The translations under genes and the position numbers were made by a program. This document shows positions 1,473 through 63,708 of a stretch of 64,000 bases of DNA, piece by piece. The stretch covers positions 13,766 to 77,765 of the forward strand of contig JAHCIP010000001.1 of the NCBI GenBank assembly GCA_026129165.1, in the 5' to 3' direction. Origin of the DNA: Anaerolineae bacterium. Its GTDB lineage: Bacteria; Chloroflexota; Anaerolineae; Epilineales; JAHCIE01. A model generated the notes under the pieces. The model had not been told where the DNA came from and made no database searches. It saw only the letters and a list, made by a program, of their open reading frames with translations. Within the stretch, counting starts at the first letter, position 1; each line of letters starts with the position of its first letter.

Positions 1473-3710
1473 ATGATCCTCAAGAACCTGTGGCGGCGCA
1501 AGACGCGCACCCTGCTGACCCTGCTCGGCGTGGCCTTTGGCGTCGCGGCTGTCGTCGCCCTGTCCGCCTTTGGTGAGGGCTTTGCGTCGAGCTTCGAGAA
1601 GATGTTCGCCACGACCTCGGCCGACCTGACGGTGTCCCAGGCCGACGCGATGATGGCCTTCCTCAGCGCGGTGGACGACAGCCTGGGCGACGAGCTACGC
1701 CAGGTCGCCGGTGTCGAGGAGGTGGCGGGCGAAGTGTTTGGTATGGTCCAGATGGACGAGGCCCCCTACTTCATCGTCATGGGCGAGGACCCGCGCAGCT
1801 TCACCATGCAGCGCTATCGCCTCATCAGCGGTCAGCCCATCACCACCCGCAAGCAGATTCTGTTGGGTAAGCTCGCCGCCAAGAACTTCAAGAAAGAGGT
1901 CGGCTCGACGTTCAGGCTCAACGACTCCACCTACCGCGTGGTTGGCATCTACGAGACGGGCGTCAGCCTGGAGGACGGCGGGGCGGTCATGGGGCTGACC
2001 GACGCGCAGCGGGCCTTCGACAAAGAGGGCAAGGTCAGCTACTACAGCCTGAAGGTGAAGGATGTCCGCCGCATCAGCGAGGTCAAGGCGGCCATCGAGA
2101 AGCAGTGGCCGACGCTGGCGGCGGCGCGGTCCGGCGAGCCGTCGCGCCAGACCGAGATGTTCGGGCTGTACCGCTCGTTTGGCCTATTTATCGGCATCTT
2201 CGCCGTACTGGTGGGCGGGCTGGGCATGATGAATACGACGCTGATGAGCGTGTTCGAGCGCACGCGCGAGATTGGCGTGTTGCGAGCCGTAGGCTGGCGG
2301 CGGCGGCGCGTGGTCAACCTGATTCTGGGCGAGTCGCTCGTGCTCTCGCTGCTGGGCGGCCTCCTCGGTATCCTCATTGGCATCGGCTTAACGCTCCTGG
2401 TGCGACTCTCACCGGCCGTCGAGTCGCTGCTCCAGGGCATCCTGACCCCGACCATGCTGGCGCAGGCGCTGGTTATCGCCCTCCTGCTGGGAGCGGTGGG
2501 GGGCCTCTACCCGGCCTGGCGGGCGGCGCAACTCGCGCCCGTGGAGGCCATGCGCTACGAGGGCGGCAGCGGCGACGTGGGCCGCATCACCCGCCAGCTG
2601 ACGCGCTGGATTCCGGGCAGCGCCCTCCGCAACCTGTTGCGCCGCCCTACGCGCACGCTGGTCACGATCGTCGGCATCGGGCTGGGCGTCGGGTTTATCG
2701 TGGCCTTGAGCGCCATGTCCGAGGGCATGATCCAGGAGTTTACGACGCTGGCCGGCGCCGGGCAGATGGACCTGGTGGTGCAGGACGCCAAGGCGTCTGA
2801 TCTGTCCGTCGCCGCCCTGGACGAACGTGTCGCCGACCAGGTGCGTACCCAACCAGGCGTCAAGGGTGTCTCAAAGATGCTCATGAAGACGTCCAGCGCC
2901 CCCGGCTTACCCTACTTCCTGGTGTTTGGCGCGGATCCGCGTGAAGATTACGTCAAGCACTTCCGCATCCACGAGGGGCGCGTCATCGAGAAGTCACGCG
3001 ACATCATGATTGGCCGCTTCGCCGCCACCAGCCTGAAAAAGGGTCTCGGTGAGAGTATCCGCATCAACGGCGTCGGCTATCAGATAGTCGGTATCTACGA
3101 GACGGGCGTCTCCTATGAGGACACCGGCGGCGTCATCACGCTACGCGAGGCGCAGGAACGGTTTGGCATGGGGCGCAAGCTGACGCTGATGGGTGTCCAG
3201 TTGGACGATCCCAGCCAGGCCGAGAGCATGGCCCGGCAGTTGGAAGCGCAATTCCCCAGTATCACCGTCAGCCTGACGTCGGCCATGACACAGCGGACGC
3301 AGGACTTCGCCACGATGGATGCCATCCTGGGGGCGTTGGTGGCGCTGACGATGCTGGTGGGCGGGGTCGTCATGATGAACGCCATGCTGATGAGCGTCTT
3401 TGAGCGGACGCAGGAGATTGGCGTGCTGCGGGCGGTCGGCTGGCGGCGGCGGCGGATCATCGGCATGGTACTAGTCGAGTCGCTTGCTTTGAGCCTGCTG
3501 AGCGCGTTGATGGGGATTGGCATTGGCATGGGACTAAGCGCCCTGTTCACCCTGGTCCCGACGTATGGGACATTCCTCAAGGCGCTCTACTCGCCCAAGG
3601 TCTTCCAGCAGGTCGCCGCCCTGGCGCTCATTCTGGGGACGATTGGCGGCCTCTACCCGGCCTGGCGGGCATCCAGGATGCAGCCGATTGAGGCGCTACG
3701 GTATGAATAG
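1473..3710 (+). CDS. ABC transporter permease, fused tandem MacB/FtsX-like modules (internal duplication)
   Basis: 745-aa ORF. Two homologous halves, each with N-terminal TM, large periplasmic domain and C-terminal FtsX 4-TM bundle (SVFERTREIGVLRAVGWRRRRVVNLILGESL vs SVFERTQEIGVLRAVGWRRRRIIGMVLVESL). Both halves end ...LYPAWRA.QL.P(V/I)EA(M/L)RYE. Confidence 0.85.
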   Translation: MILKNLWRRKTRTLLTLLGVAFGVAAVVALSAFGEGFASSFEKMFATTSADLTVSQADAMMAFLSAVDDSLGDELRQVAGVEEVAGEVFGMVQMDEAPYFIVMGEDPRSFTMQRYRLISGQPITTRKQILLGKLAAKNFKKEVGSTFRLNDSTYRVVGIYETGVSLEDGGAVMGLTDAQRAFDKEGKVSYYSLKVKDVRRISEVKAAIEKQWPTLAAARSGEPSRQTEMFGLYRSFGLFIGIFAVLVGGLGMMNTTLMSVFERTREIGVLRAVGWRRRRVVNLILGESLVLSLLGGLLGILIGIGLTLLVRLSPAVESLLQGILTPTMLAQALVIALLLGAVGGLYPAWRAAQLAPVEAMRYEGGSGDVGRITRQLTRWIPGSALRNLLRRPTRTLVTIVGIGLGVGFIVALSAMSEGMIQEFTTLAGAGQMDLVVQDAKASDLSVAALDERVADQVRTQPGVKGVSKMLMKTSSAPGLPYFLVFGADPREDYVKHFRIHEGRVIEKSRDIMIGRFAATSLKKGLGESIRINGVGYQIVGIYETGVSYEDTGGVITLREAQERFGMGRKLTLMGVQLDDPSQAESMARQLEAQFPSITVSLTSAMTQRTQDFATMDAILGALVALTMLVGGVVMMNAMLMSVFERTQEIGVLRAVGWRRRRIIGMVLVESLALSLLSALMGIGIGMGLSALFTLVPTYGTFLKALYSPKVFQQVAALALILGTIGGLYPAWRASRMQPIEALRYE

Positions 3711-3727
3711 GGGCGGTGGTGGATGAT

Positions 3728-3812
3728 GCGTGATACGTAATGCGTGAAGCGTGAGGCTGAGGGCTGAGGGCTGAAAGCTGATAGCTGATAGCTGACCGCT
3801 AATAGCTCTGAG
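3728..3812 (+). repeat. Degenerate heptanucleotide tandem repeat tract (GGCTGAG / AGCTGAT units) in the 110-bp spacer upstream of the ABC ATPase gene
   Basis: gtgaggctgagggctgagggctgaaagctgatagctgatagctgaccgctaatagctctgagg lies immediately 5' of the RBS (gaggagagagag) and ATG at 3822. Confidence 0.7.
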
Positions 3813-3821
3813 GAGAGAGAG

Positions 3822-4634
3822 ATGACGCAGTATGTGGTCGAGACCCACGACCTGACCAAGATTTATGGCAACGGTCATGAGGTGCGGGCGCTGGATGGCG
3901 TCAACCTGACGGTGGCGGCGGGCGAACTGGTGGCGATTGTTGGGCCGTCGGGGTCTGGCAAGTCCACCCTGCTGAACATGATTGGCGCGTTGGACCGTCC
4001 CACCAGCGGCGAAGTGGTCATTGACGGCACGCCGCTGTCCAAGGTGCGTAACCTGGACCAGTTCCGCAGCCAGACCATCGGCTTCGTGTTCCAGACGCAC
4101 AACCTGATTCCAACACTGACGGGGCAGGAAAATGTCGAAGTGCCCATGTATGAGACCACTTTGAGTGGGTCGAAGCGCCACGGCCGAGCGCAAGAGCTTC
4201 TCAGACTGGTTGGGCTGGGAGAACGCATGCACTACCTGCCCGCGCTTATGTCCGGCGGCGAGCGCCAACGCGTGGCCATCGCCCGCGCCCTCGCCAACCG
4301 CCCCAGCATCATCCTGGCCGACGAGCTAACGGGGATGCTCGACTCGCGCACGACGCAGGACATTCTCGCCCTGCTGACCCAACTCAACGCCCAGCAGGGA
4401 ACCACGATGATCATCGTGACACATAACCATGAAGTGGCGCGGGCGACGCGGCGGGTGATTACCTTCCGCGACGGGAAGGTGCAGAGCGATGTGGCGATTC
4501 GCAGCGCCTACGAGAGCGACCTGCTGGACTGGAAGAGTTCCACGCTCGGTCAGGCGATCCTGCAGGGCGACGGCGTGCCGGAGGGACTAAAGGCTATCGT
4601 CCCCCAGCTAAGGGAGGCGTTTGACAAGGTTTAG
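3822..4634 (+). CDS. ABC transporter ATP-binding protein (MacB/LolD-type ATPase)
   Basis: Walker A GPSGSGKST, Q-loop, ABC signature LSGGERQRVAIARAL, Walker B IILADELTGMLD, H-loop VTHN. 270 aa. Confidence 0.9.
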   Translation: MTQYVVETHDLTKIYGNGHEVRALDGVNLTVAAGELVAIVGPSGSGKSTLLNMIGALDRPTSGEVVIDGTPLSKVRNLDQFRSQTIGFVFQTHNLIPTLTGQENVEVPMYETTLSGSKRHGRAQELLRLVGLGERMHYLPALMSGGERQRVAIARALANRPSIILADELTGMLDSRTTQDILALLTQLNAQQGTTMIIVTHNHEVARATRRVITFRDGKVQSDVAIRSAYESDLLDWKSSTLGQAILQGDGVPEGLKAIVPQLREAFDKV

Positions 4635-4683
4635 CGCCGTAGGGGGTATTAGTTCAAACCAGTAAGAACCATAGCGTTTATAC

Positions 4684-5538
4684 CTAGCGTCTAACAGTGA
4701 ATGCGCCTGATAGAACTAGGTTATTGGGATTCTCAAGATAGAATTCCACCCTATAAACTCCTGTTGGAAAGGGGAGTCCACAGTTAGTATTGGTCTTTGG
4801 GCACCAATTGACCCAATTAAACTCGAAATCGATACAATCGAAGCTGCTTTGCCCACAGATTTTGGGTCCGGTGTCCGAGCTCGAGTTGTCTGGATTTAAA
4901 ACGCCATCCTTATACCACTTTTGGAAAAAAGGCATTCCCCTGTATACATTCTCAACTTCCCATGTATAATAGATTTTGGTTACTACACCTCTAAACTCAC
5001 TCGTAGATATTCTACACTGCCCAGCCTGCAAGTCAAAGTCGCTATCTGCACAGAAAACAAGGTTGTAAAAACGCGGTGTACTTACTCGGGACGGTGGAAC
5101 ATTTGTTAGTGTGGCCAGCGGGATAACCACTACCTTTATCGTTGGCTGTTGGTTAGCTGCTGGCTGAGAGGTAGGGACAGTTATGTTTGTCTCTGCCGAA
5201 GAAGGAGGAGATAGACGACGGAACATTAGCCATCCCATTACGATGATTGTCATTAAGACAACAGAGGAGAGAAGCCCTAGCGCGACTAATTTTGATTGAG
5301 ACGTTCCTTTGATAAGTAGATCTTCTGTTCTAATATCGGGCCGATTTCGTTTAAGCCACGTCACTAACTCGCTGAGTCGTTCGCGACGATACAAATCGAA
5401 GATTAGCTGTCGAACTAATTCGCCTTTGTCTAGTCCTTCATAATCAATGCCTAGATCAGCTGCCGCGTCGCGGAGTTCATCGAAGTTTAGTCTTTGTCTT
5501 AGGACCTCGCGAAGAGCCGATTTGTCCCAGTTTGTCAT
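4684..5538 (-). CDS. Single-pass membrane protein in an AT-rich island: N-terminal cytoplasmic helical domain resembling effector-associated domain EAD1, one TM helix, S/T/P-rich linker, C-terminal six-Cys (presumably extracellular) domain of unknown fold
   Basis: 284-aa ORF. N-terminus LREVLRQRLNFDELRDAAADLGIDYEGLDKGELVRQLIFDLYRRERLSELVTWLKRNRPDI matches my recollection of the EAD1 consensus (F..EL..L...LGIDYE.L.G......LV.Y..R..RL.EL...L...RPD). TM = LVALGLLSSVVLMTIIVMGWLMF. C-terminal domain carries 6 Cys and W/F/Y-rich motifs (FNWVNWCPKTNTNCGLPFP). Local GC is far below flanks. Confidence 0.5.
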   Translation of the reverse strand: MTNWDKSALREVLRQRLNFDELRDAAADLGIDYEGLDKGELVRQLIFDLYRRERLSELVTWLKRNRPDIRTEDLLIKGTSQSKLVALGLLSSVVLMTIIVMGWLMFRRLSPPSSAETNITVPTSQPAANQQPTIKVVVIPLATLTNVPPSRVSTPRFYNLVFCADSDFDLQAGQCRISTSEFRGVVTKIYYTWEVENVYRGMPFFQKWYKDGVLNPDNSSSDTGPKICGQSSFDCIDFEFNWVNWCPKTNTNCGLPFPTGVYRVEFYLENPNNLVLSGAFTVRR

Positions 5539-5650
5539 TGGCGGCGTCTCCTAGACCTCCCGACTCTTTCTGTAACACGATTGTTATAAATCGGCTGTCG
5601 TAAGTCTACTATCCCGGTCAGTATGTGTCAAGATTGTCTTACACTGCTGG

Positions 5651-5672
5651 CTGAAAAGACCCCCGTGGGGGT
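5651..5672 (-). terminator. Putative intrinsic terminator for the minus-strand trkA-containing operon
   Basis: Minus-strand reading: ACCCCCACGGGGGT hairpin followed by CTTTTCAG, 10 bp after the stop of the TrkA-N gene. Confidence 0.4.
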
Positions 5673-5681
5673 AGACGTTTC

Positions 5682-6083
5682 TTACATTCCCTCTATGATA
5701 AGTTTCGCCATCACCTCGGCCTGGTTGACCGCGACATCGCAGCCCATCTCCGGCGTGAACAGCCAGGCATTTTTGGGGTTATTGACGCGGGCGATGACAC
5801 GGTGGACGTTGAACTCCTGCCGCGCCAGGCTCGTCACCACCAGGTTCGTCTCGTCCGCGCCCGTGACCGCCGCGACCAGGTCGGTCCGGCGGATACCCGC
5901 CGCCTCCAGCACATCGGGGTCGGTCCCATTGCCCATCACCACGACAGCCGCCGGCAGGTCATGGCGCAGCACGGCCGCGTGGTCGCTGCGGCTCTCGATG
6001 ACTGTAATCGGGTGGCCCTCGCTCATGAGAAGGCGCGCTAACCCCTCGCCCAGCTTTCCCCCGCCCACAATGATAACGCGCAT
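5682..6083 (-). CDS. TrkA-N (KTN/RCK NAD-binding) domain protein
   Basis: 133 aa. MRVIIVGGGKLGEGLARLL Rossmann GxGxxG motif typical of TrkA-N/RCK. Confidence 0.8.
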   Translation of the reverse strand: MRVIIVGGGKLGEGLARLLMSEGHPITVIESRSDHAAVLRHDLPAAVVVMGNGTDPDVLEAAGIRRTDLVAAVTGADETNLVVTSLARQEFNVHRVIARVNNPKNAWLFTPEMGCDVAVNQAEVMAKLIIEGM

Positions 6084-6736: not shown

Positions 6737-9582
6737 ACAGCACCTCGTTCACGACGCCGGCCCCAGGCTTTGCGCGCTTCATCGGCCAGCAGCAGTAGGG
6801 GCGTCCAGGCCAGCAGGAACAGCCAATGGCTGGCCGGGAAGGCGGCTGTGCCGACGAAGGCCTGGAAAGGCGGAGCATAGACGATCAGGACAATCAGGAC
6901 CATCTCGACAGCGATACCCAGCCATACCAGGCGGTTGCTGAACCAACTCAGACGGAAGACCGACAGTCGCTCGGTGCGCTGGGCGAACAGGTTGCCAATC
7001 TGGGTCATGACCACCGCCGCCAACGCCATGGCCGTCGCGGCGCGGTACAGGTCACCCTGGGCTGGCAGGTCCAACCACTGACCCCTGTAGCCGTTAGTCC
7101 AGTACTGGAAATAGAAGGCCGCCATGACGGCCAGGCTCTGCAAAGGACCGAGGAAGAGGTAAGCCCGCGCCAGCAGACCCGGCGTAATGACATGCTCGTG
7201 GAGGCTGCGCGGCGGGCGGTCCATCGTGCCGGGTTCGGGAACCTCCGCCCCCAGCGCCAGCGCCGGGGCCATATCCGTCCCCAGGTCCACCGCCAGCACG
7301 TGCATCACATTGAGCGCCAGCGGTATCCGCCCCCCACTCAGGACGAATAGGATAAACGGGACAGCTTCCGGGGTGTTGCTGGTAAAGATGTAGGTCGTAA
7401 ATTTCTTGATGTTGGCGTAGACGGCGCGGCCCTCTTCGATGGCGTTGACGATGGAGGCGAAGTTGTCGTCGGTCAGAATCATGTCCGCCGCCTCCTTCGC
7501 CACGTCCGTCCCTGCCTGACCCATCGCCACACCAATGTCCGCCTTCTTGAGGGCCGGCGCGTCGTTGACACCATCCCCTGTAACGGCGACGATGTGGCCG
7601 AGAGTCTGGAGCGCTGCCACCACGCGCAGCTTGTGCTCCGGGGCGACGCGGGCGAAGATGACCTCGTCGGTCATGGCAGCCTGCAGGGCGGCATCGTCCA
7701 GAGTGTCCAGGTCCGCGCCGGTGAGGATGCGCGGCTGGGGACCGCGCAGGATGCCGATGCGGCGGGCGATACTCTCCGCCGTCAGGCCATAGTCGCCCGT
7801 AATCATAATGATGCGGATACCCGCGCGGTGGCACTTCGCCACAGCCTCGCTCACTTCGGGGCGAGGCGGGTCCATCATCGCCGCCAGTCCCAGGAAAACC
7901 AACTCGGTCTCAACCGTCTCTGGAGTATACTGGGGCAGGCTGGCCGGGACGGCGCGCATCGCCAGGGCCAGGACACGCAGCCCCTGGCGGGCGTAGTCGT
8001 CATTGGCGGCCAGGATAGCCTGGCGCTGAGTGTCGTCGAGGGGGACAGCCTGACCCCGACGCCAGACCTGGCTGCACAGCGCGACAATCTCTTTCGGCGC
8101 GCCTTTGACATAGGCAATGAGGCCGCTCTCTTCGCCCGTCACCCGATGGAGGGTCGTCATGCGTTTGCGCCGCGACTCAAACGGTATCTCCCGCCAGCGG
8201 GGCAGCGTCCGCATCTCGGTGTCCAGGTCCAGCCCCCCCTTGGCCGCGACGACGCGCAACGCTGCCTCGGTCGGGTCGCCGAGGATGGTCCAGCGCGGCG
8301 TCTCAGCGTTGGGGGGCAGCAAGCGGGCGTTGTTGCATAGTCCAGCCGCCAGGAGGAGTTGGCGGAGGTCGAGGGAGGAGTCATTGTCCGACGGCGTGAC
8401 AGACGAGATCGCACCGTCGGGGGCGTAGCCCACGCCGCTGACGGTGTAGGCGGCGCCTGGCAGCCATAGGGCGCGGACAGTCATCTCGTTCTGGGTGAGG
8501 GTGCCCGTCTTGTCGGTACAGATGACCGTCGCACAGCCCAGCGTCTCGACGGCCGACAGGCGTTTAACCAGGGCATGACGGCGCGCCATACGCTGGACGC
8601 CCATCGCCAGGGCCAGGGTAACGGTAGGGAGCAGCCCTTCCGGGACAAAAGCGACAATCATACCCAGCGCGAAGATGAAGCTCTCGGCCAGCGTAACCCG
8701 CGCCAGAAGGACGGCGAGGCCAAAGAACACCAGGCCCATGACGACGGCGATGACTGTCACCTGCTTGGTCACGCGGCCTAGCTCGCGTTGCAGGGGGCTG
8801 GGTTCCTCGGCGACGCTCTGGGTAAAGTGGGCGATGCGGCCAAACTCGGTACGCATGCCCGTCGCCACAACGACCGCCTGGCCCGTGCCGGCCGCCACAG
8901 ATGTGCCGGCGAAGACCAGGTTGGGCATCTCCACGGTCGCCAGATCGGTGCGGGTCACGGCATCCGCCGTCTTACGCACGGCGTCGGCTTCGCCGCTGAG
9001 GGTAGACTGGTCCACCCGCAGTTCGGCAGCCTGGACGAGCCGCCCATCGGCCGCCACGCGGTCGCCCTCGGCCAGCAGCAGGAGGTCGCCTGGCACGATC
9101 TCCTCGGCCGGGAGGCGCTGCTCCTCGCCTTGCCGTACTATGCGGGCGTAGGGAGACAGCAGCCGTTTGAGGGCTTCGGTGGCCCGTTCGGCCTTGAACT
9201 CCTGCCAGAAGCTAAACGCGCCGTTGATGACATTAACCATCCAGATGGCGATGCCCAACTGGGGCAGTTGGGCGATGAAGGCCACCAGGCCGCCGGCCCA
9301 CAGCAGCCAGGCCATCAGATGGGTAAAGTTAGCCAGGAACTTGACCCACAGCGGGACGCCGTGAACCTCCTGGAGGGCATTCCGACCATAGCGGGTCAGG
9401 CGAGCCTGCGCCTCGGCAAGCGTCAGGCCCTGGGGTGAGGTCTCCAGGGCCTGGTAAACATCGGGTATAGCGCGGGATGCGATGGGCGGGTCAGACGACT
9501 GTGGGTCGGGCAGGGAGGCGCGGGCTGGACGGGGTTCAGTCTCTGGCGGGTGGAGGGGGACAACCACGCGCGGTCGGCTCAT
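6718..9582 (-). CDS. P2-type cation-transporting P-type ATPase
   Basis: 954 aa. Motifs ICTDKTGTLT (phosphorylation site), VPEGLLPTVTLALAMG (PEGL), TGDGVNDAPALKKADIGVAMG. N-terminal cation-ATPase-N-like region, 10 predicted TM helices. Start ATG overlaps the stop of the upstream esterase gene (ATGA). Confidence 0.9.
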   Translation of the reverse strand: MSRPRVVVPLHPPETEPRPARASLPDPQSSDPPIASRAIPDVYQALETSPQGLTLAEAQARLTRYGRNALQEVHGVPLWVKFLANFTHLMAWLLWAGGLVAFIAQLPQLGIAIWMVNVINGAFSFWQEFKAERATEALKRLLSPYARIVRQGEEQRLPAEEIVPGDLLLLAEGDRVAADGRLVQAAELRVDQSTLSGEADAVRKTADAVTRTDLATVEMPNLVFAGTSVAAGTGQAVVVATGMRTEFGRIAHFTQSVAEEPSPLQRELGRVTKQVTVIAVVMGLVFFGLAVLLARVTLAESFIFALGMIVAFVPEGLLPTVTLALAMGVQRMARRHALVKRLSAVETLGCATVICTDKTGTLTQNEMTVRALWLPGAAYTVSGVGYAPDGAISSVTPSDNDSSLDLRQLLLAAGLCNNARLLPPNAETPRWTILGDPTEAALRVVAAKGGLDLDTEMRTLPRWREIPFESRRKRMTTLHRVTGEESGLIAYVKGAPKEIVALCSQVWRRGQAVPLDDTQRQAILAANDDYARQGLRVLALAMRAVPASLPQYTPETVETELVFLGLAAMMDPPRPEVSEAVAKCHRAGIRIIMITGDYGLTAESIARRIGILRGPQPRILTGADLDTLDDAALQAAMTDEVIFARVAPEHKLRVVAALQTLGHIVAVTGDGVNDAPALKKADIGVAMGQAGTDVAKEAADMILTDDNFASIVNAIEEGRAVYANIKKFTTYIFTSNTPEAVPFILFVLSGGRIPLALNVMHVLAVDLGTDMAPALALGAEVPEPGTMDRPPRSLHEHVITPGLLARAYLFLGPLQSLAVMAAFYFQYWTNGYRGQWLDLPAQGDLYRAATAMALAAVVMTQIGNLFAQRTERLSVFRLSWFSNRLVWLGIAVEMVLIVLIVYAPPFQAFVGTAAFPASHWLFLLAWTPLLLLADEARKAWGRRRERGAVCDSSS

Positions 9583-21164: not shown

Positions 21165-21803
21165 ATGAAACGCTGGATGCTGATTGTGACTCTCGTGATG
21201 GCGCTGATGCTGGTCTTTGGAGCGGTGACGTATGCGCAGGGACCGACGGGGAACCCGACGCCGGGCACGTGCCCGATGGGCTTCGAGCCGGGCCAGGGGC
21301 CTGGGCCGGGGGCCGGCCGCGGGCCGGGCATGGGCGGGGAACCGCGCGGTGGGCAGCCGGCCTGGGCGGGGATGGAGGACGAGGTCATCACGCTGCTGGG
21401 CATAACCGAAGAGCAAATCCAGGCCGAGCGGCAGGCCGGCAAGTCGTTGGTCCAGATCGCGGCCGACAAGGGCGTCACTGAGCAGACGCTGGTGACGACC
21501 ATCCTCAACGCCAAGAAAGCCGACCTGGACGCTCAGGTCGCGGCGGGGAGCCTGACTCAGGACCGGGCCGACGCGATGTACGCCCGCATGCAGACCCAGG
21601 TGGCGGCCGCCGTCAACCGCACGACGACCGGGCCGCGCGAGGGCCAGCAGGGTCAGGGCCTGGGCCAACCGGGCCAGGGTCAAGGGCAAGGCCAAGGGCA
21701 AGGCCAGATGAACGGCCTGCGCCAGGGTCAGGGACAGGGCCAGCCGCCCGCCACAGCGCCAGGACGCGGAACGACGGGCATGGGGCCGCGCTGGGGCCGG
21801 TAA
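21165..21803 (+). CDS. Secreted Gly/Gln/Pro-rich protein with central helical LTxxQ-like (CpxP/Spy/DUF2680-like) segment
   Basis: 212 aa. Signal peptide MKRWMLIVTLVMALMLVFGAVTYA. Low-complexity GPGPGAGRGPGMGG and GQGQGQGQGQ tracts. Central ITEEQIQAERQAGKSLVQIAADKGVTEQTLVTTILNAKKADL helical repeats. Confidence 0.5.
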   Translation: MKRWMLIVTLVMALMLVFGAVTYAQGPTGNPTPGTCPMGFEPGQGPGPGAGRGPGMGGEPRGGQPAWAGMEDEVITLLGITEEQIQAERQAGKSLVQIAADKGVTEQTLVTTILNAKKADLDAQVAAGSLTQDRADAMYARMQTQVAAAVNRTTTGPREGQQGQGLGQPGQGQGQGQGQGQMNGLRQGQGQGQPPATAPGRGTTGMGPRWGR

Positions 21804-39069: not shown

Positions 39070-39127
39070 TTTACCCTTCCTACCCTTCCCACTCTTCCTA
39101 TTTCTTTCCTTGTCTTCGGAGGACCCC

Positions 39128-40189
39128 ATGCTGCCCGTATTTGACGGCCACAACGACACCCTGCTCAACCTGTACCTGACCCAGCGCGGCGGGGGCCGCA
39201 GCTTCTTCGAGGCCAGCGACCGAGGCCACATTGACCTGCCCCGCGCCCGCGAGGGCGGCTTCGGCGGCGGCTTCTTCGCCTGCTTCACGCCGAACCCTCG
39301 TATGGCCGACATTACCGCCGATGAGGGTCTGATCAAGACCGCCACGGGTTTCGAGTTCCCGCTCGCCGCCCCCATTGACCTGGCCTACGCCCAGCGTACG
39401 ACGTTTGGCCTGGCGGCGCTGCTCTTCCGGCTGGAAGCCCAGTCCGACGGCCAACTCAAGGTGGTGCGGACGGCGGACGAACTGGAAGGGTGTCTGACGA
39501 ATGGTGTCGTGGCCGCCATCTTTCATATCGAGGGCGCGGACGCCATTGACACGGACCTGGACACCCTGGAGGTGCTCTACCAGGCCGGGCTGCGCTCGCT
39601 GGGCATCGTCTGGAGCCGGCCCACCGCCTTCGGCCACGGCGTCCCCTTCCGCTTCCCGTCGTCGCCCGACACCGGCCCCGGCCTGACCGATGCCGGCAAG
39701 GAACTCGTCCGCGCCTGCAATCGCCTGGGTATCATGGTGGACCTATCGCACCTCAACGAGCAGGGCTTCTGGGATGTCGCCGCCCTATCCGACGCGCCCC
39801 TGGTCGCCACCCACTCCAACGCCCACGCCCTGTGTCCCGTGACGCGCAACCTGACCGACAAGCAGCTTGACGCCATCCGCGACTCCGACGGTATGGTGGG
39901 CCTCAACTTCGCCGTGGGCTTCCTACGCGAGGACGGCCTCAACAACGCCGACACGCCGCTGGAGACTATGGTGCGCCACATTGACTACCTGGTGGAGCGC
40001 GTCGGCCTGGACCGCGTTGGCTTCGGCTCCGACTTCGACGGCGCCAGAGTGCCAGCCGACATCAAGGACGTGACGGGTCTACCGAAGCTGCTTGACGCCC
40101 TCCGCGCCGCCGGCTACGACGAGCCGAGCCTGCGCAAGTTGGCCTACGAGAACTGGCTGCGCGTCCTCCGCAAGACCTGGCGAGGGTGA
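39128..40189 (+). CDS. Membrane dipeptidase (peptidase M19, renal-dipeptidase family)
   Basis: MLPVFDGHNDTLL N-terminal motif. HIEGADAID, VDLSHLNEQGFWDV, THSNAHALCP, GFGSDFDG, all typical of M19 dipeptidases. Confidence 0.85.
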   Translation: MLPVFDGHNDTLLNLYLTQRGGGRSFFEASDRGHIDLPRAREGGFGGGFFACFTPNPRMADITADEGLIKTATGFEFPLAAPIDLAYAQRTTFGLAALLFRLEAQSDGQLKVVRTADELEGCLTNGVVAAIFHIEGADAIDTDLDTLEVLYQAGLRSLGIVWSRPTAFGHGVPFRFPSSPDTGPGLTDAGKELVRACNRLGIMVDLSHLNEQGFWDVAALSDAPLVATHSNAHALCPVTRNLTDKQLDAIRDSDGMVGLNFAVGFLREDGLNNADTPLETMVRHIDYLVERVGLDRVGFGSDFDGARVPADIKDVTGLPKLLDALRAAGYDEPSLRKLAYENWLRVLRKTWRG

Positions 40190-40440
40190 ACCTAACCCCC
40201 CGGCCCCCTTTCCTGCTAGGGAAGGGGGAGCAGCCCGGAGTTAACTCCCCTCCCTTTTTAGGGGAGGGGTTGGGGGAGGGGTTCAGCGCGGCCATACCTA
40301 ACCCTCCGACCCCCTTCCCTGGCAAGGAAGGGGGGCAGACCGTTCCGACCCCCCTCCCTTCGTAGGGGAGGGGTTGGGGGAGGGGTCCATCTCCACTCCA
40401 ATCAAGTAAGGCTACCCAAACGATGGGTAGCCTCAGCCGA
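40190..40440. repeat. Two tandem copies of a ~105-bp composite palindromic element, each with a C5TTYCC..GGAAGGGGG hairpin and a CCCCTCCC..GGGGAGGGG hairpin ending in GGGGAGGGGTTGGGGGAGGGG (G-quadruplex-capable)
   Basis: Unit 1 about 40191-40283, unit 2 about 40301-40388. Located between convergent gene ends (dipeptidase stop 40189; small minus-strand gene stop about 40560). Confidence 0.8.
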
Positions 40441-40559
40441 ATCTATTCAGTTTGAGAGCTGATTCCTGAGTACTGACGACCGACGACTGCTCCCCGGGCG
40501 GGCCTTCATCACCGTACACGACAGCGGGCATTTGGCGCATGGTCTTACCCGCCTGGGAC

Positions 40560-40872: not shown

Positions 40873-41065
40873 GTCAGGTCCTTTCTGGTGGTTGGTCCTT
40901 TGTCCTCGGTCTTCCGTCTTCCGCCTGCCCCCCGCAATGGGGGGGCCTCCGTCCTCTAGCGTGGCCCCATTGAACCACACCAACGCGCCAAAGTCCTACC
41001 CCTTTTGAGGAGAAAAAGGGGTATAATTGGGGGTATAAAGTTGTCCCAGGGGGTAGACCTGCCAG

Positions 41066-44065
41066 ATGTCTGATCTATCCTTCGGTCAGTGGCTCAAGCG
41101 GCGGCGGGCCGGGCTGGGGCTGACCCAGGCCGAACTGGCTGACGCGGTCGGCTACAGCCGCGAAATGATTCGCAAGCTCGAAGTGGACAGGCTGCGGCCC
41201 TCGAAGGCGCTAGCCGTGCGGCTGGCCGCAGTCCTCCAGCTCCCGCCCGAAGACCACGCCGCGTTTATCCGCTTCGCCCGCGACGAGGGCAGCGACCCGC
41301 CGCCTCCCCTGCCCACGCAGACCACCAGCGTCCCCCCACCCTCCACACTCGACGCTTCACGCTCCACCTCTGCTCCCCTCCCCCACAACCTGCCCATTCC
41401 TCCCACCCCCCTCGTCGGGCGCGAGGCAGAGACGCGACAGGTCGCCTCTCTCCTCCACCGTCCCGACGTGCGTCTCGTCACCCTCACCGGCCCCGGCGGC
41501 AGCGGCAAAACGCGCCTGGCGCTAGAAGTGGCGCATACGCTGACGAAAGACCGAGGACGGAAGACGGAAGACGAAGGGCGAAATACGAAATACGCATTAC
41601 GCACTACGGACGGCGTCTTCTTCGTCAACCTCGCGCCTATCACTGACCCCAGCCTGGTGATAGCGACGATAGCACAGGCGTTGGACGTGCGGGAGAGCGG
41701 GGGGCGTCCCCTACTGGAGAGCGTGAAGGACTACCTACGCGAGAAGGAGATGCTACTGCTGCTGGACAACTTCGAGCAGGTGGTCGAAGCGGCTCCTATC
41801 GTGGCCGACCTGCTGGCCTACGCGCCGGGTCTCAAATGTCTCGTTACCAGCCGTATCCCGCTGCACCTGCGCGGCGAGAAGGAGTTCCTCGTTGAACCGC
41901 TCCCGCTGCCAAGCCGGGATAGCCGACCGCTGACGGTAGACGGCCGCCAAGAAACGGATTACGCGGCGCGCATCACGCAATATGCCGCCGTTGCCCTGTT
42001 CATCCAGCGGGCGCAGGATGTGAAAGCCGACTTCCAGGTGACGAACGAGAACGCCCCCGCCGTGGCTGAAATCTGCCATCGGCTCGACGGCTTGCCCCTC
42101 GCCATTGAATTGGCGGCGGCGCGGGCGCGCGTCCTCACGCCGGAAGCCATGCTCCCCCGGCTCCAGCGCCGGCTGGCATTCCTGACCAGCGGCCCCGCCG
42201 ACTTACCGGCCCGTCAGCAGACGCTCCGCGCCACCATTGACTGGAGCTTTAGTCTGTTGACAGCAGGCGAGCAGGCTCTCTTTACCCGGCTGGCCGTCTT
42301 CCACGGCGGGTTCACCCTGGAAGCGGCCGAAGCGCTGTGCGGCGACGACGACGGAGGACGAAGGACGGAGGAAGAGAACTCTCGTCCGTCGTCCGTCCTC
42401 CATCTTCCGTCAGTCCTGGACGGTGTCGAATCGTTGGTCGCCCAGAGCCTGGTGCGGCGTGCCCTGCGTGGCAGCGCCGAGGCAGAAGCAGCCTCGCTGC
42501 CGTTCACCATGCTCGAAACGATCCGCGAGTATGCCCTGGACCGCTTTGCGGCCAGCCCAGAGGCTGGCATGGTCCGACAGAGACACGCCCAGTATTACCT
42601 TGGTCTGGTGGAGGAGGCGGAGCCTCAACTGATGGGGGCTGGGCTGACGGCCTGGTTGGGGCGGCTGGGCGCGGAGTGGGAGAATATCCGGGCGGCGGTG
42701 GGTTGGCTGCGAGACAGCGCCCAGCCAGAGGCCCTGCTCAGGCTCGTTGGCGCGTTACGCCGCTTCTGTGAACTTCAGGGACGCTCCAGCGAGGCGTTGG
42801 CCTGGCTGGAGGAGGGTTTGAACCAGGGCGGGGAGGTCGCGGCGGCGGTGCGGGCCAAGGCTCTCCATGTGGCGTCAAATCTGGCGCAGAACATGGGCGA
42901 CCTGGACGGCGCGGTGCGGTTGGGCGAGGCGAGTCTGGCCCTCCGCCGCGAGTTGGGCGACCAGCAGGGCATGGCGCGGACGCTCAACAACCTGGCTGTG
43001 ACGGCCTGGTCGCAGGGCAATTTCAGCCAGGCCCGCGAGTTACACGCGGCCAGCCTCGCCATCAAACGCGCGCTCAACGACCGGCTGGGCATGGCCTATT
43101 CCCTCAACAACCTGGGCCTGATTGCCACCGACCAGGACGACTACCCCACCGCGCGGGCCTTGCTAGAGGAGAGCCTGACCCTGCGGCGAGAATTGGGCGA
43201 CCAGCACGGCGTCGCCGTCTCCCTTCTCAACCTGGGCAATGTGGCCCGCCAGCAGGGTCAATTGGGGGAAGCCCGCGCCCTCTACGAGCAGAGCCTGGCG
43301 CAGTTACGCCGCCTGGGAGATCGGGCCAATGAGGCGCGGGTGCAGAGCGTGCTGGGTCTCACCCTGGCCGAGCAGGGTGACTACGCCGCCGCCTTCGCCC
43401 ATTTGCAGGCCAGTCTGGACCTGCGGCGGACGCTCGGCAATAAACGCGACATCACCGTGTCGCTTAACAATCTGGGGCAGGCCGCGCTCTATCAAGGCGA
43501 TGTGGCCTGGGCGCGGCTGGTGTTTGAGGACGCCCTGGGCCTGGCCCGCGAGGGCGGCGCGAAGATGGGGCAGGCCAACGCGCTGGTCGGGCTGGGCCAG
43601 GTGGCCCTGGCTGAGGGGCGGTGGGAAGACAGCCGGCGCTATCTGCTGGCGGGGCTGGACCTACAGCGCGAGCTGGGGGATCAGGGAGGGGTAGCGACAA
43701 CGCTGCTCGCCCTGGCGAAGCTCAATGCCCACGCTGGCGACATGGGGAACGCTCTTGCTAGGGCGCGCGAGAGCCTGGGCGAGTTGCACCGGCTGGGCCT
43801 TCAACTATTCCTGGCCGATGCCCTTGAAACCTTAGTCGGGCTGCTTGGGCGTGGCGATCCCGATGGGGCAACCCGCCTGGGCGGGGCAGCCGCCGCCTTG
43901 CGGGCGAGACTGGGGATTCCGCTGCCGCGAGGCGCACAAGGGGAGTGGGCGCGACGGCTGGACGAACTGAGGGGAGCGCTGGGGGGGAATCGTTTCGAGG
44001 CCCTGTACCAGACGGGCCACACGCTACCCCTCACTGAAGCCGTCGCGGAGGCGCTGGCGGATTGA
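41066..44065 (+). CDS. STAND-type regulator: N-terminal XRE-family HTH, NB-ARC/AAA ATPase module, C-terminal TPR array. Carries two in-frame insertions derived from a palindromic repeat family.
   Basis: 999 aa. HTH LGLTQAELADAVGYSREMIRKLE. Walker A LTGPGGSGKTRLA, Walker B LLLLDNFEQV, GLPLAIELAAA (NB-ARC GxP-like). About 12 TPR units (...LNNLA...YSLNNLG...LLNLG...). Low-complexity inserts TKDRGRKTEDEGRNTKYALRTTDG and DDDGGRRTEEENSRPSSVLHLPSVLDG. Confidence 0.8.
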   Translation: MSDLSFGQWLKRRRAGLGLTQAELADAVGYSREMIRKLEVDRLRPSKALAVRLAAVLQLPPEDHAAFIRFARDEGSDPPPPLPTQTTSVPPPSTLDASRSTSAPLPHNLPIPPTPLVGREAETRQVASLLHRPDVRLVTLTGPGGSGKTRLALEVAHTLTKDRGRKTEDEGRNTKYALRTTDGVFFVNLAPITDPSLVIATIAQALDVRESGGRPLLESVKDYLREKEMLLLLDNFEQVVEAAPIVADLLAYAPGLKCLVTSRIPLHLRGEKEFLVEPLPLPSRDSRPLTVDGRQETDYAARITQYAAVALFIQRAQDVKADFQVTNENAPAVAEICHRLDGLPLAIELAAARARVLTPEAMLPRLQRRLAFLTSGPADLPARQQTLRATIDWSFSLLTAGEQALFTRLAVFHGGFTLEAAEALCGDDDGGRRTEEENSRPSSVLHLPSVLDGVESLVAQSLVRRALRGSAEAEAASLPFTMLETIREYALDRFAASPEAGMVRQRHAQYYLGLVEEAEPQLMGAGLTAWLGRLGAEWENIRAAVGWLRDSAQPEALLRLVGALRRFCELQGRSSEALAWLEEGLNQGGEVAAAVRAKALHVASNLAQNMGDLDGAVRLGEASLALRRELGDQQGMARTLNNLAVTAWSQGNFSQARELHAASLAIKRALNDRLGMAYSLNNLGLIATDQDDYPTARALLEESLTLRRELGDQHGVAVSLLNLGNVARQQGQLGEARALYEQSLAQLRRLGDRANEARVQSVLGLTLAEQGDYAAAFAHLQASLDLRRTLGNKRDITVSLNNLGQAALYQGDVAWARLVFEDALGLAREGGAKMGQANALVGLGQVALAEGRWEDSRRYLLAGLDLQRELGDQGGVATTLLALAKLNAHAGDMGNALARARESLGELHRLGLQLFLADALETLVGLLGRGDPDGATRLGGAAAALRARLGIPLPRGAQGEWARRLDELRGALGGNRFEALYQTGHTLPLTEAVAEALAD

Positions 44066-47537: not shown

Positions 47538-47547
47538 GGGGCTTCTC

Positions 47548-47614
47548 GACCAAGGACGAAAGACCAAAGACCAACAAGGAGATATATTGGTCGTTGGTCC
47601 TTCGTCCTTGGTCC
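47548..47614. repeat. Imperfect ~26-bp inverted repeat hairpin of the GGACGAA(A/G)GACC family filling the glcD-stop to PRTase-start spacer
   Basis: gaccaaggacgaaagaccaaagaccaacaagg-agatatat-tggtcgttggtccttcgtccttggtcc. Related copies at 40876-40924, 41542-41613 and 42344-42423. Confidence 0.8.
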
Positions 47615-49063
47615 CTACAAGGTGTGGTCCTCCGCCACGACCTGGGGCAAGCGGCGGTGCTTCTTGCCGACTTCGTAGCATGCCTTCGAGGTCGGGAACA
47701 TCTTGCCGGGGTTGCACAGTCCAGCCGGGTTGAACGCCGCGCGCACCTGGACCATCGCCCGCAGATCCGCCCCGTCGAACTGGTCGCACATATCCTCGCG
47801 CTTCTCGACGCCGATGCCGTGCTCGCCGCTGATGGAACCGCCCGCCTCGATGCACACCCGCAGGATATCGGTTCCGCACTTCACAACCGCCCGCACCTGG
47901 GCCGGGTCACGCTCGTCGAACAGAATCAGCGGGTGGAGGTTGCCGTCGCCGGCGTGGAAGACGTTGGCGATGCGGAAGCCGTACTGCCGGCTGATCTCGT
48001 TGACGCGGTGGAGTACCCACGGCAGCTTGGTGCGCGGGATGACGCCGTCCTGGACGTAGTACGACGGCGACAGGCGGCCCATCGCGCCGAACGCGCCCTT
48101 GCGCCCCGCCCACAGCTTGTCGCGCTCGGCGGTGGTCTTGGCCTCGCGCACCTCGCGCGCCCCCTGAGCGCGGCATAGCTCGGCCACGTGGTCGGCCAAT
48201 CCTTGCAGGCCGTCGGTAAACCCTTCCAGGTCAATCAGCAGCACCGCCGCCGCGTCTGTGGGGTAGCCACACTTCTTGGCCGCCTCGACGGCGCGGATGG
48301 CGGTGTTGTCCATCATCTCCAACGCGGCGGGGATCGTCCCGTCGGCGATGATGGCCGACACAGCATTGCTGGCGTTGTCCACGGCGTCGAACACAGCCAG
48401 CAGTGTCTTGACCGCTTCGGGCTGGTGGACCAGGCGCACCAGAACCTCGGTGACGAGACCCAGCGTCCCCTCCGAGCCGACCATTAAGCCGGTCAGATCG
48501 TAGCCGGGCGCGTCGGCGGTGGGCAGCCCCAGCCTCACGACCTCGCTGTCTGGCAGCACCGCCTCCAGCATATGCGTGTGATTAGACGTGACGCCGTAGG
48601 CCAGGCAGTGCGGGCCGCCCGAGTTCTCGGCCACGTTGCCGCCAATAGTGCACGCCCGCTGGCTGGACGGGTCCGGCACGTAGTAGAAGCCCTGACCCGC
48701 GACAGCCGTAGTGACATCTATGTTGACCACGCCTGGCTGGACCGTCGCCCGCAGGTTGGGCAGGTCAATGTCGAGGATGCGCCTCATGCGGGCGAAGGAG
48801 ACGACGATGCCGCCCTGGACCGGCACGGCCCCGCCAGAGAGGCCCGTCCCCGCGCCGCGCGGCATGAAGGGCAGGCTGTGCTCGTTGGCGAGGCGCACCA
48901 CCGCCGCCACCTCCGCCGTCGTCTCTGGAAAGACGACAAAGTCGGGTTGCGCCTTGTCCAGCGCGCCATCGTACTCGTAGAGCGCGACGTCCTGGGGGCG
49001 GTGCAGCACCTTGTCCTGGCCGAGGAGCGTCTCTAACTGGCGGAGAATCGTCGTCTTATCCAT
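47615..49063 (-). CDS. FAD-linked oxidase, GlcD-like (glycolate oxidase / D-lactate dehydrogenase family)
   Basis: 482 aa. FAD_binding_4 (VVFPETTAEVAAVVRLANEHSLPFMPRGAGTGLSGGAVP) plus C-terminal FAD-oxidase_C domain. Confidence 0.8.
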   Translation of the reverse strand: MDKTTILRQLETLLGQDKVLHRPQDVALYEYDGALDKAQPDFVVFPETTAEVAAVVRLANEHSLPFMPRGAGTGLSGGAVPVQGGIVVSFARMRRILDIDLPNLRATVQPGVVNIDVTTAVAGQGFYYVPDPSSQRACTIGGNVAENSGGPHCLAYGVTSNHTHMLEAVLPDSEVVRLGLPTADAPGYDLTGLMVGSEGTLGLVTEVLVRLVHQPEAVKTLLAVFDAVDNASNAVSAIIADGTIPAALEMMDNTAIRAVEAAKKCGYPTDAAAVLLIDLEGFTDGLQGLADHVAELCRAQGAREVREAKTTAERDKLWAGRKGAFGAMGRLSPSYYVQDGVIPRTKLPWVLHRVNEISRQYGFRIANVFHAGDGNLHPLILFDERDPAQVRAVVKCGTDILRVCIEAGGSISGEHGIGVEKREDMCDQFDGADLRAMVQVRAAFNPAGLCNPGKMFPTSKACYEVGKKHRRLPQVVAEDHTL

Positions 49064-49072
49064 CGTCGCTCC

Positions 49073-51779: not shown

Positions 51780-51885
51780 GATGGGGTGCATATACTATAG
51801 TCAGTACTAGTCAGTAGCCAGTCGTCAGTAGACACTAGCCAGTCGTCGGTAGTCGGTAGCCAGTCGTCGGTGAATAGTAGAAGGA
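51780..51885 (+). repeat. Tandem short repeats (TAGTCAGTA and AGCCAGTCGTCGGT units) in the 5' leader of the aldo/keto reductase gene
   Basis: tagtcagtactagtcagtagccagtcgtcagtagacactagccagtcgtcggtagtcggtagccagtcgtcggtg, 10-110 bp upstream of start 51891. Confidence 0.7.
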
Positions 51886-54263: not shown

Positions 54264-54287
54264 GGAATAGGGATTAAGGATAAGGGA

Positions 54288-54743
54288 GTGGGGATGCAGG
54301 AGTCAGGTTTGCAGGTCACAGGCGCACCGAGACCGCGCACGGCGCAACTGCGCGTGCGGCGCATCGGTTACCTCGCGCTGGCGAAGTTCGGCTGCCTGCT
54401 GGGCGGGCTGGCGATGATCCTGCCGGGCCTGGTGTGCGGCTTGGTGAGCGTGAACCTGGTCCACGTGGTGCGGGCCTGGCTCGAAAGCTGGCAGCAATTC
54501 AGCCTGATCCTGCTAGGCCAGAACCTCGGCTCGCTCGACCTGATTAACGCCCTGCGCCTGACCGCCGTGCTGGAGCGGCTGCGCCTGCTGGACCAGACGA
54601 GTCCCGTGGCGCTGCTGAGCATTACGGTGGCTGTCTCGCTCCTCGGCGGACTGCTGCTGGCGCTCGTCGTGTGCCTGGTCGGCCTGGGCTACAATGTCCT
54701 GGCCTGGTTGACGGGCGGTCTCACGCTCGAGGTAGAGGAATGA
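54288..54743 (+). CDS. Small polytopic membrane protein, unknown function
   Basis: 151 aa, 3-4 hydrophobic helices. RBS-like GGGAGTGGGG upstream. Confidence 0.35.
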   Translation: MGMQESGLQVTGAPRPRTAQLRVRRIGYLALAKFGCLLGGLAMILPGLVCGLVSVNLVHVVRAWLESWQQFSLILLGQNLGSLDLINALRLTAVLERLRLLDQTSPVALLSITVAVSLLGGLLLALVVCLVGLGYNVLAWLTGGLTLEVEE

Positions 54744-63562: not shown

Positions 63563-63585
63563 TCCAAACCTCCTGACGACGGACC

Positions 63586-63617: not shown

Positions 63618-63708
63618 AAATAGCGGAAGCCCCTGGCAGCAGACTACGCATGGACCAGGGGCTTCGCGGGCCGCATATTCAGTTGATGGAACTAACCAAC
63701 GCTCGGCG

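Follow-up and report, generated by a model that had tools for sequence, protein, structure and literature searches.

The three tracts of 7-nt tandem repeats described here lie upstream of three genes in a 64-kb stretch (hereafter the window; GC content 64.9%) of a metagenome-assembled genome of the Anaerolineae (Chloroflexota). We found that they belong to a larger set of heptamer arrays in the window, which exceeds chance at a period of 7 nt, occupies a range of genetic contexts, falls into distinct classes of predicted RNA structure and has turned over rapidly between related genomes. The tracts are probably slippage-driven heptanucleotide arrays, accompanied by inverted duplications, of the class known as short tandemly repeated repetitive (STRR) sequences or long simple sequence repeats (LSSRs), which persist where they are tolerated and would be transcribed as inert spacer. 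The original prediction had placed the tracts in the 5′ leaders of genes for an ABC ATPase, an aldo/keto reductase and an antiporter, and had proposed that they vary in copy number or serve as binding sites for a shared factor. This interpretation is partly supported. The three tracts are as follows.

3717-3812, plus strand: direct array of about 13 units (case 1), identified by unit reading, Tandem Repeats Finder and a lag-match scan
51797-51880, plus strand: direct array of TAGTCAG, TAGCCAG and TCGTCGG units (case 2), identified by the same three means
63573-63620, minus strand: (TAGTCAG)×4 with two degenerate units (case 3), identified by unit reading and Tandem Repeats Finder

Unit reading and Tandem Repeats Finder confirmed head-to-tail 7-nt copies at the three sites, and Tandem Repeats Finder found further loci. 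The window was scanned for arrays at periods of 4 to 13 and 14 with a criterion of 20 matches in 28 lagged positions, and 30 block shuffles were used as a control. Ten period-7 segments were detected, against a mean of 0.1 (maximum 1) in the shuffles. Each other period from 4 to 13 gave between 0 and 3 segments, and period 14, corresponding to 2 × 7, gave five. A period-7 excess was likewise observed in two relatives, L201 and L203, which are introduced below. As had been claimed, the three tracts are richer in AT than the genome around them, with a GC content of 44-54% compared to 64.9% for the window; the value for all spacers is 57.3%. The word TAGTCAG itself occurs 8 times in the window against 3.5 expected, a count reached in 3 of 100 shuffles. 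As this enrichment is modest, the signal lies in the tandem arrangement and not in the word. Nothing in the window matched an Rfam model at the gathering threshold. The arrays are unlikely to be an assembly artefact, because at 29-96 nt they are below typical short-read length and the same kinds of array are present in independent assemblies.

Case 1 fills the 111-nt spacer between the stop codon (3708-3710) of a MacB/FtsX permease gene (1473-3710) and the ATG (3822) of a gene for an ABC_tran ATPase (3822-4634). Tandem Repeats Finder reported a period-7 array at 3724-3807. The units from 3717 to 3807 read TGGTGGA, TGATGCG, TGATACG, TAATGCG, TGAAGCG and TGAGGC in the first half, followed by TGAGGGC, TGAGGGC, TGAAAGC, TGATAGC, TGATAGC, TGACCGC and TAATAGC, after which TCTGAGGAGAGAGAG leads to the ATG. 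Twelve of the 13 units begin with TGA or TAA. The antisense strand of the array is free of stop codons, and a minus-strand open reading frame (ORF, 3696-4268) traverses it. The array is degenerate, with at most two identical units side by side. One of its units, TGATGCG (3724-3751), reappears at a different locus in L201 (12547-12578) and in a hairpin on an unrelated metagenome contig (L172, 4700-4793), which suggests a limited shared vocabulary of heptamers.

Case 2 lies in the 5′ untranslated region (UTR) of an Aldo_ket_red gene (51894-52874), which is divergent from a gene for alpha-glucan phosphorylase (Pfam). Tandem Repeats Finder detected a period of 7 at 51808-51880, with a 21-nt super-unit in 3.0 copies (86% matches). 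The array begins with TAGTCAG, an interposed TAC, TAGTCAG, TAGCCAG, TCGTCAG, TAGACAC and TAGCCAG, continues to 51880 with TCGTCGG, TAGTCGG, TAGCCAG, TCGTCGG and TGAATAG, and is followed by TAGAAGGAGCTAAGTG and the ATG (51894). Here, too, no more than two identical units are adjacent. The perfect units adjoin a conserved TATACTA box. Scans for promoter and terminator consensus sequences found nothing on the relevant strand at cases 1, 2 and 3, and it is therefore by its conservation that the box upstream of case 2 may be taken as −10-like.

In case 3, Tandem Repeats Finder identified (CTGACTA)×6.6 at 63573-63618 with 89% matches. Read on the minus strand, TTTCAG, (TAGTCAG)×4, TGGTCCG and TCGTCAG are followed by GAGGTTTGGA and the ATG (63562) of a Na_H_Exchanger cation:proton antiporter gene (62345-63562, minus strand). 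The array is flanked by a hairpin (63626-63665) on one side and by the GGAGG ribosome-binding site of this gene on the other, and is the sole flagged case with more than two perfect units, namely four. The genes flanking the three tracts were confirmed by Pfam to be those originally described. In all three cases a Shine-Dalgarno sequence (GAGGAG, GAAGGAG and GGAGG in cases 1 to 3, respectively) is present between the array and the ATG, the arrays ending 14-25 nt upstream of the start codon. All three sense frames contain stop triplets, which recur with a period of 7 (TGA or TAA in case 1, TAG in cases 2 and 3).

Eight heptamer loci were found in the window beyond the three originally flagged.

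40885-40937, minus strand: direct array with the stop-free sense units GGAAGAC, GGAAGAC, CGAGGAC, AAAGGAC and CAACCAC (lag-match scan)
40453-40487, minus strand: array with the sense units TCGTCGG, TCGTCAG, TACTCAG and GAATCAG, in the 3′ UTR of a small gene (stop 40560)
47546-47617, minus strand: inverted array pair with GGACCAA-type and TTGGTCC-type arms of 27 nt, 93% complementary (fold)
54260-54287, plus strand: TAAGGAA, TAGGGAT, TAAGGA and TAAGGGA (lag-match scan)
21289-21317: in-frame heptamer locus in an ORF (array scan)
41329-41368, plus strand: in-frame array of CCACGCT type within the ORF of an HTH-AAA-TPR (STAND) regulator (41066-44065)
41539-41617, plus strand: in-frame array of GACGGAA and CGAAATA units in the same ORF, immediately downstream of its Walker A motif
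42345-42412, plus strand: in-frame inverted pair in the same ORF, with GACGGAG-type and TCGTCCG-type arms of 26 nt, 81% complementary

Seven of the 11 loci are thus intergenic and four are in frame within coding sequence. Since spacers of at least 20 nt account for 7.5% of the window, this corresponds to an approximately 20-fold intergenic enrichment. Six of the seven intergenic arrays terminate 7-25 nt upstream of a start codon. The part of the original prediction that located the tracts just upstream of three starts held, whereas a specificity for leaders was not borne out: case 1 is intercistronic, one array lies in a 3′ UTR, four lie in ORFs (three of them checked against an ortholog) and two loci are hairpins. 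The contexts range over 5′ UTRs, operon spacers, the 3′ UTR and coding sequence. The units belong to at least six unrelated families (TGATGCG/GCTGAGG/GCTGATA, TAGTCAG/TCGTCGG, GGAAGAC/AAGGACC, TAAGGAA, CGAAATA and CCACGCT), and runs of two to four identical adjacent units are interspersed among diverged ones.

Among the additional loci, the 40885 array immediately precedes the ATG (40872) of a small gene whose product has a putative signal peptide, and the 40453 array, whose unit family is common to cases 2 and 3, precedes a hairpin at 40409-40433. The inverted pair at 47546-47617 fills the 77-nt spacer from the stop codon of an FAD-oxidase gene to the ATG (47537) of a phosphoribosyltransferase gene, and its units contain no stops. 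The 54260 array extends from the TAA stop codon of the gene at 52914-54263 to a point 7 nt short of the following ATG (54295), every unit containing TAA or TAG. In place of this TAAGGAA-type array, L201 has a palindrome of about 120 nt (CCGCCGATTGAAATCGGGGCTA ... TAGCCCCGATTTCAATCGGCGG) at the corresponding position (7290-7400, matching 54264-54294 in the window); this is a different kind of intergenic hairpin insertion. The regulator at 41066-44065 has an HTH-AAA(NB-ARC-like)-TPR architecture, and its three in-frame arrays encode charged low-complexity inserts, TKDRGRKTEDEGRNTKYALRTT in the case of the array at 41539-41617.

We compared these loci with those of relatives. A search with the phosphorylase led to L201 (ENA ERZ28614660, syntenic, 93% amino acid identity), L202 (79%) and L203 (75%), and a search with the permease led to L204 (72%), L205 (66%) and L206 (64%). 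All comparisons of loci are thus between lineages at 64-93% amino acid identity and between consensus assemblies. Exact-protein look-ups of three flanking genes and of P0121 found no second assembly of the organism. At the junction between the phosphorylase and FAD-oxidase genes, the window has 9 nt (49064-49072) and L202 has 11 nt. The same junction comprises 139 nt in L201 (12545-12683), with TGATGCG-type and ATACGCA-type arrays at its ends, and 94 nt in L203 (10789-10882), with TGAAGGT-type and ACCTTCA-type arrays at its ends, each as a hairpin. The presence of unrelated heptamer hairpins at one junction in L201 and L203 points to independent gains there. The hairpin between the FAD-oxidase and phosphoribosyltransferase genes is found in L201 as well, with the same length of 77 nt and a different loop and unit order.

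Length differences were also evident at case 1, where the two genes are separated by 26 nt in L204 and 31 nt in L205 and overlap by 8 nt in L206; the array of the window is accordingly a lineage-specific expansion at a tight operon junction. The short spacers are themselves heptamer-phased with other units, reading TAGTCAG, TGGTCAG, TAGAGGA... from the stop codon in L204 and TGAGAGG, TGAGAGA, TTCGGGA, TTGGAGA, TGGGGGA... in L205. The aldo/keto reductase leader of L201 matches that of the window at about 90% identity as far as TATACTATAGTCAGT and resumes this match at the Shine-Dalgarno sequence; in between, 38 nt of the array are missing and the remaining array has diverged. For case 3, no informative close ortholog was found, and no array was detected beside the antiporter homolog in the seven best Chloroflexota loci (L001-L007, matches at most 54% identical). 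Within the STAND regulator, the insertions and deletions that distinguish the window from the ortholog in L201 coincide exactly with the three arrays: the window has a 10-residue insertion at the 41329 array and a 15+2-residue insertion at the 41539 array, and is six residues shorter at the 42345 pair, where L201 carries (TCCGTCC)×6.4. The arrays turn over fast while their flanks are conserved, and the same locus is polymorphic in length between related genomes.

RNA folding energies were evaluated as z-scores against dinucleotide shuffles. The direct arrays of case 2 (z = +1.28), case 3 (z = +1.14) and the 40885 leader (z = +1.01) folded worse than their shuffles, with essentially open centroid structures, and the RNA of case 1 was weakly structured (z = −1.75). 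None of the three flagged arrays has an inverted partner array. The inverted pair of the window behaved differently: the segment 47530-47620 had a predicted minimum free energy of −52.1 kcal/mol (z = −9.05) with a long stem, and the heptamer hairpins of the relatives gave z = −4.8 in L203 and z = −3.2 in L201. Two of the 11 loci in the window (47546 and 42345) are such inverted array pairs, predicted to form hairpins of about 27 bp.

A scheme in which neutral slippage generates the arrays would account for these features. The three flagged tracts would then be ordinary members of a population of heptanucleotide arrays that is spread across the lineage. Arrays would gain and lose units through slipped-strand mispairing in a 7-nt register, sometimes in steps of 21 nt, with older units blurred by later point mutations, and inverted duplication of an array would give rise to the hairpin versions. 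They would persist where a 7-nt-periodic insertion is harmless, that is, in gaps between a stop codon and a ribosome-binding site and in 5′ and 3′ UTRs, or in protein linkers provided that they are free of stops in frame and that the net length keeps the frame. The arrays would be co-transcribed with their neighbours, and the three flagged ones would merely lengthen the untranslated spacer before an intact Shine-Dalgarno sequence. As the RNA is predicted to be unstructured (cases 2 and 3) or weakly structured (case 1) and carries stops in three frames, any effect on expression is likely to be incidental. Such an effect would come from spacer length and loss of translational coupling rather than from a common recognition motif.

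In cyanobacteria, the STRR sequences of Mazel et al. (1990) are reportedly 7-nt tandem arrays dispersed in intergenic DNA, with several unit families per genome. STRR sequences are defined by specific units (CCCCAGT, TTGGTCA and CAACAGT) in heterocystous cyanobacteria. The arm units TTGGTCC, TTGGTCG and TTGGTCT (47587-47613) of the window are one base removed from the STRR unit TTGGTCA. The three flagged arrays do not contain the canonical units, and the host is a member of the Anaerolineae with its nearest relatives in the Chloroflexota. Heptanucleotide repeats have been described as the most abundant class of simple sequence repeats (SSRs) of 5-11 nt in many prokaryotes and ascribed to polymerase slippage (Mrazek 2007, as reported in PMC4679880 and PMC4692102). 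As far as these second-hand accounts go, the dominance of period 7 and the lineage specificity of LSSRs are common to the window. Within the same phylum, the excerpted description of Chloroflexus aurantiacus reports (GATAGRA)n satellites (PMC6749651), which have no unit in common with the window in that excerpt.

Other heptamer repeats are more distant. Hundreds of intergenic arrays of the G-rich heptamers GGGAATC in Xanthomonas and GGGGA(T/C)T in Nostoc have been reported (Rehm et al. 2015, PMC4692102). Some are inverted stem-loops, their length and sequence vary between close species at the same junctions, and there is no link to a gene class (PMC4692102). These units form G-quadruplexes, in contrast to those of the window, which are not G-tract repeats. 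Geobacter metallireducens harbours multicopy elements of four heptanucleotide units (GGACCGG) between and within genes (PMC2700814); unlike the arrays of the window, they are a conserved GC-rich family with a fixed number of four copies, annotated as putative regulatory RNA (PMC2700814). Across these reports (PMC4679880, PMC4692102, PMC6749651 and PMC2700814), repeats of this class vary in length between close relatives and have no established function. In view of these classes, the functional proposals made originally restate published speculation on a known class of repeats, and what is new here is the Anaerolineae lineage and new units within that class. At face value, the finding extends the range of bacteria with heptanucleotide repeats throughout their intergenic DNA to an uncultured Anaerolineae lineage. 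The arrays also indicate that such repeats can split tight operon junctions, extend 5′ UTRs and add low-complexity linkers to a regulatory protein, and for annotation they imply that heptamer tracts should not be taken as conserved regulatory motifs.

It had also been pointed out that the motif TAGTCAG stands in the mRNA-sense leader of two unrelated genes. All three TAGTCAG-type arrays of the window are sense-oriented, an outcome with a chance probability of 0.25. We examined orientation in metagenomes. A scan for (TAGTCAG)3 found matches in at least 120 contigs with a GC content of 38-73%. Among the matches listed, 84 arrays of (TAGTCAG)≥3 in 80 loci (L081-L160) were analysed with a heuristic ORF caller, and the metagenome counts given hereafter refer to these. 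In the orientation of the window, only 4-5 of the 84 arrays are found at most 40 nt upstream of a start, against 29 on the opposite strand, where the mRNA would read (CUGACUA)n-AUG. A further class of 26-29 arrays directly follows a stop codon on the same strand, and about nine of these have the TAG of a unit as that stop codon. Pfam was used to check ten of the opposite-strand starts; all ten belong to real genes, including those for biotin carboxylase, a FabD-type acyltransferase, L9, Fpg and cobalamin adenosyltransferase, and eight of them have a domain alignment that starts at one of the first five residues. Between co-directional genes, lone arrays were in sense orientation in 8 cases and antisense in 12, indicating no bias relative to transcription. 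A sense orientation of TAGTCAG in leaders is therefore not a rule. One of the metagenome loci (L152, 3280-3462; 69% GC contig, unrelated) carries (CTGACTA)×14 and the ribosome-binding site GGGAGGAA before a gene for a MacB-type ABC ATPase, which is the gene family found at case 1; the orientation is opposite to that of cases 2 and 3.

A different explanation, unlikely in our view, is that a shared post-transcriptional factor, such as S1, Csp or CsrA, binds the arrays, or that they act as translation enhancers. The closest precedent is the TAACTGA direct repeat of marine Beggiatoaceae, some Cyanobacteria and Bacteroidetes, whose function is unknown (MacGregor 2015, PMC4679880). These repeats are mostly intergenic, in forward orientation a few nucleotides upstream of starts, with stops in three frames and an unstructured prediction, and occur occasionally in ORFs; a translational role has been proposed (PMC4679880). 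The window resembles them in that six of the seven intergenic arrays end shortly before a start, in the three-frame stops and in the lack of predicted structure, the arrays of cases 2, 3 and 40885 being open and case 1 reaching z = −1.75. The case 1 unit TAGCTGA matches TAACTGA at 6 of 7 positions in the forward orientation. In addition, the (CUGACUA)n arrays found 1-37 nt upstream of 29 metagenome starts, often without a Shine-Dalgarno sequence, share the ACUGA core and the start-proximal forward orientation with TAACTGA (PMC4679880), and a preprint on Nostoc reports that deletion of a heptamer repeat alters recO promoter activity in reporters, effects on recF being speculative (10.1101/2022.06.06.494920).

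The window itself fits this explanation poorly. Its arrays neither consist of TAACTGA units nor replace the ribosome-binding site with forward arrays at the start. The reverse complement of the units in cases 2 and 3, CTACTGA, matches TAACTGA at 5 of 7 positions, and their orientation is reversed relative to the ACTGA core, opposite to that of the common start-proximal arrays in metagenomes. Case 1 carries a GCTGA core in sense, whereas cases 2 and 3 carry ACTGA in antisense. Beggiatoa leaders mostly lack a Shine-Dalgarno sequence, whereas the genes of the window retain canonical ones; and the Beggiatoa genome has one unit and one inverted version (PMC4679880), compared to many units and common hairpin versions in this Anaerolineae genome of 65% GC. 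At least six unrelated units occur in the window, similar arrays are present in coding sequence and a 3′ UTR, and the arrays lack conservation in relatives that have retained the genes, the aldo/keto reductase array being mostly absent in a close relative despite conserved flanks.

Several observations weigh against the view that the arrays are merely tolerated products of slippage. None of the six start-upstream arrays of the window reaches the Shine-Dalgarno sequence, and among the four direct ones three have less structure than their shuffles, which could reflect selection for function rather than tolerance. In the metagenome set, an inverted partner arm is always located 3′ of the TAGTCAG arm (31:0 among the matches listed), where a partner was called at an alignment score of at least 12 (95th percentile of the background, 8.6). 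In lone arrays, it is the 5′ end of the TAGTCAG strand that adjoins a gene boundary in 27 cases (16 stops and 11 starts), compared to 6 cases for the 3′ end. These gene calls are heuristic, and the Pfam check covers ten of them. Plain neutral slippage does not predict such boundary polarity and fixed arm order. Finally, the units TAGTCAG and TGATGCG recur in unrelated genomes of 38-73% GC, which suggests a constraint on unit sequence or horizontal spread.

The TAGTCAG hairpins of the metagenomes have a regular layout: one outer end adjoins the stop codon of a gene and the other the start codon of its neighbour, and for 25 of 29 CTGACTA arms the distance to the following gene is within 40 nt. 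Examples are the following.

L088, 1577-1656: TAGTCAG hairpin in a metagenome locus
L146, 1038-1196: TAGTCAG hairpin in a metagenome locus
L152, 3280-3462: TAGTCAG hairpin in a metagenome locus

These features raise another possibility, quite an unlikely one, in which units are added in a polar and sequence-directed manner toward one end until growth is halted by constrained sequence such as a stop, a start, a promoter or a terminator. Inverted copies would then be laid down in a fixed arm order, and hairpin modules extending from stop to start, arising independently at the same operon junctions in related genomes, would act as intercistronic processing or insulating structures. The fixed order of hairpin arms would follow from directional growth halted at constrained sequence. 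Cases 2 and 3 fit polar growth, as their perfect units are at the 5′ end, beside the TATACTA box or the 63626-63665 hairpin. Support for polar growth is nevertheless weak: degenerate units were equally frequent on either side of the perfect TAGTCAG block (41 vs 41), very long extensions alone being one-sided, and in other hairpin families the 5′ arm is not generally the stop-rich one. Boundary polarity and fixed arm order are not mentioned for LSSRs in the second-hand accounts of Mrazek or for the C. aurantiacus satellites in the excerpt of PMC6749651. The array polarity is unexplained and is the most interesting by-product of this analysis. Together with the fixed arm order and the independent hairpin gains, the polarity of (TAGTCAG)n offers a handle on why 7 nt is the favoured repeat period of bacteria.

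That the tracts are contingency loci, in which copy number reversibly tunes or switches expression through the promoter-to-ribosome-binding-site spacing or the 5′ UTR, we judge improbable. Control through SSRs in a 5′ UTR has been documented in Haemophilus (PMC12721329) and, as cited at second hand in PMC4679880, for uspA2 of Moraxella. The predicted variation in copy number was found in the form of array lengths that differ between related genomes, and the four perfect units of case 3 would be prone to slippage. The differences are, however, between lineages at 64-93% amino acid identity and not within a population. Cases 1 and 2 are degenerate, their lack of more than two identical adjacent units lowering slippage rates, and case 1 is internal to an operon without a promoter consensus. 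The genes concerned encode housekeeping-type transporters and a reductase, so that the arrays do not occupy the promoter or ORF 5′ end of a gene for a surface or host-interaction protein. Furthermore, with an intact Shine-Dalgarno sequence downstream of the arrays, changes in spacing need not alter initiation.

Selection for stop codons is decidedly improbable as an explanation. The arrays would here be three-frame stop modules, or insulators, that end read-through or frameshifted ribosomes and uncouple adjacent cistrons. Case 1, with its TGA- or TAA-first units and stop-free antisense strand (ORF 3696-4268), the 54260 array that starts at a TAA stop codon, and the arrays in metagenomes that use the TAG of their unit as the stop codon are all consistent with this. 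So are spacers in L201, L203, L204 and L205, in which units with TGA or TAG in first place begin right at the stop codon. The units at 40885 and 47546 are nevertheless free of stops. We also rejected a general placement of the stop-rich arm on the 5′ side of hairpins; in those with units other than TAGTCAG, this arm was 5′ in 6 cases, 3′ in 5 and neither in 6. Stop content is inherited by tandem duplication, so that the units are not independent evidence, and AT-rich heptamers often contain stop triplets by chance. As in-frame stops exclude arrays from ORFs, an intergenic location may be the result of a filter and not of a function.

Highly improbable, finally, is the notion that a small mobile element, similar to a miniature inverted-repeat transposable element (MITE) or a repetitive extragenic palindromic (REP) sequence, inserts hairpins at gene junctions and that the arrays are its remnants or copies. 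In its favour, L201 has an entire hairpin of about 130 nt that the window lacks, unit families recur at different loci and on unrelated contigs, arm order is strictly fixed and some contigs (L112) have about one hairpin per gene junction. Against it, loops and units differ between copies, even among the same-junction hairpins of the window, L201 and L203. Neither conserved termini nor target-site duplications were noticed, no transposase was identified in association with the arrays, and the three flagged ones have no inverted partner.

Some further features were observed. The 12.3-kb metagenome contig L112 (GC content 0.68) contains eight heptamer hairpins with six different units, approximately one per gene junction, and some organisms appear to punctuate nearly every spacer with heptamer hairpins. 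In the window, a low-GC island (4635-5700; 53-55% compared to 65% for the window) contains a minus-strand ORF (4684-5538) that matches Pfam EAD7 (effector-associated domain 7), and may have been acquired horizontally. A 78-nt tandem repeat (811-1026; 2.2-2.8 copies, up to 94% matches) lies within a GC-rich ORF (38-1450). Just downstream of the gene at 39110-40189 is a 104-nt tandem duplication (40190-40386; 1.9 copies, 81% matches), which consists of the G/C-rich hairpins CCCCTTCCCTG...AAGGGGG and CCCCTCCCTT...AGGGGAGGGG.

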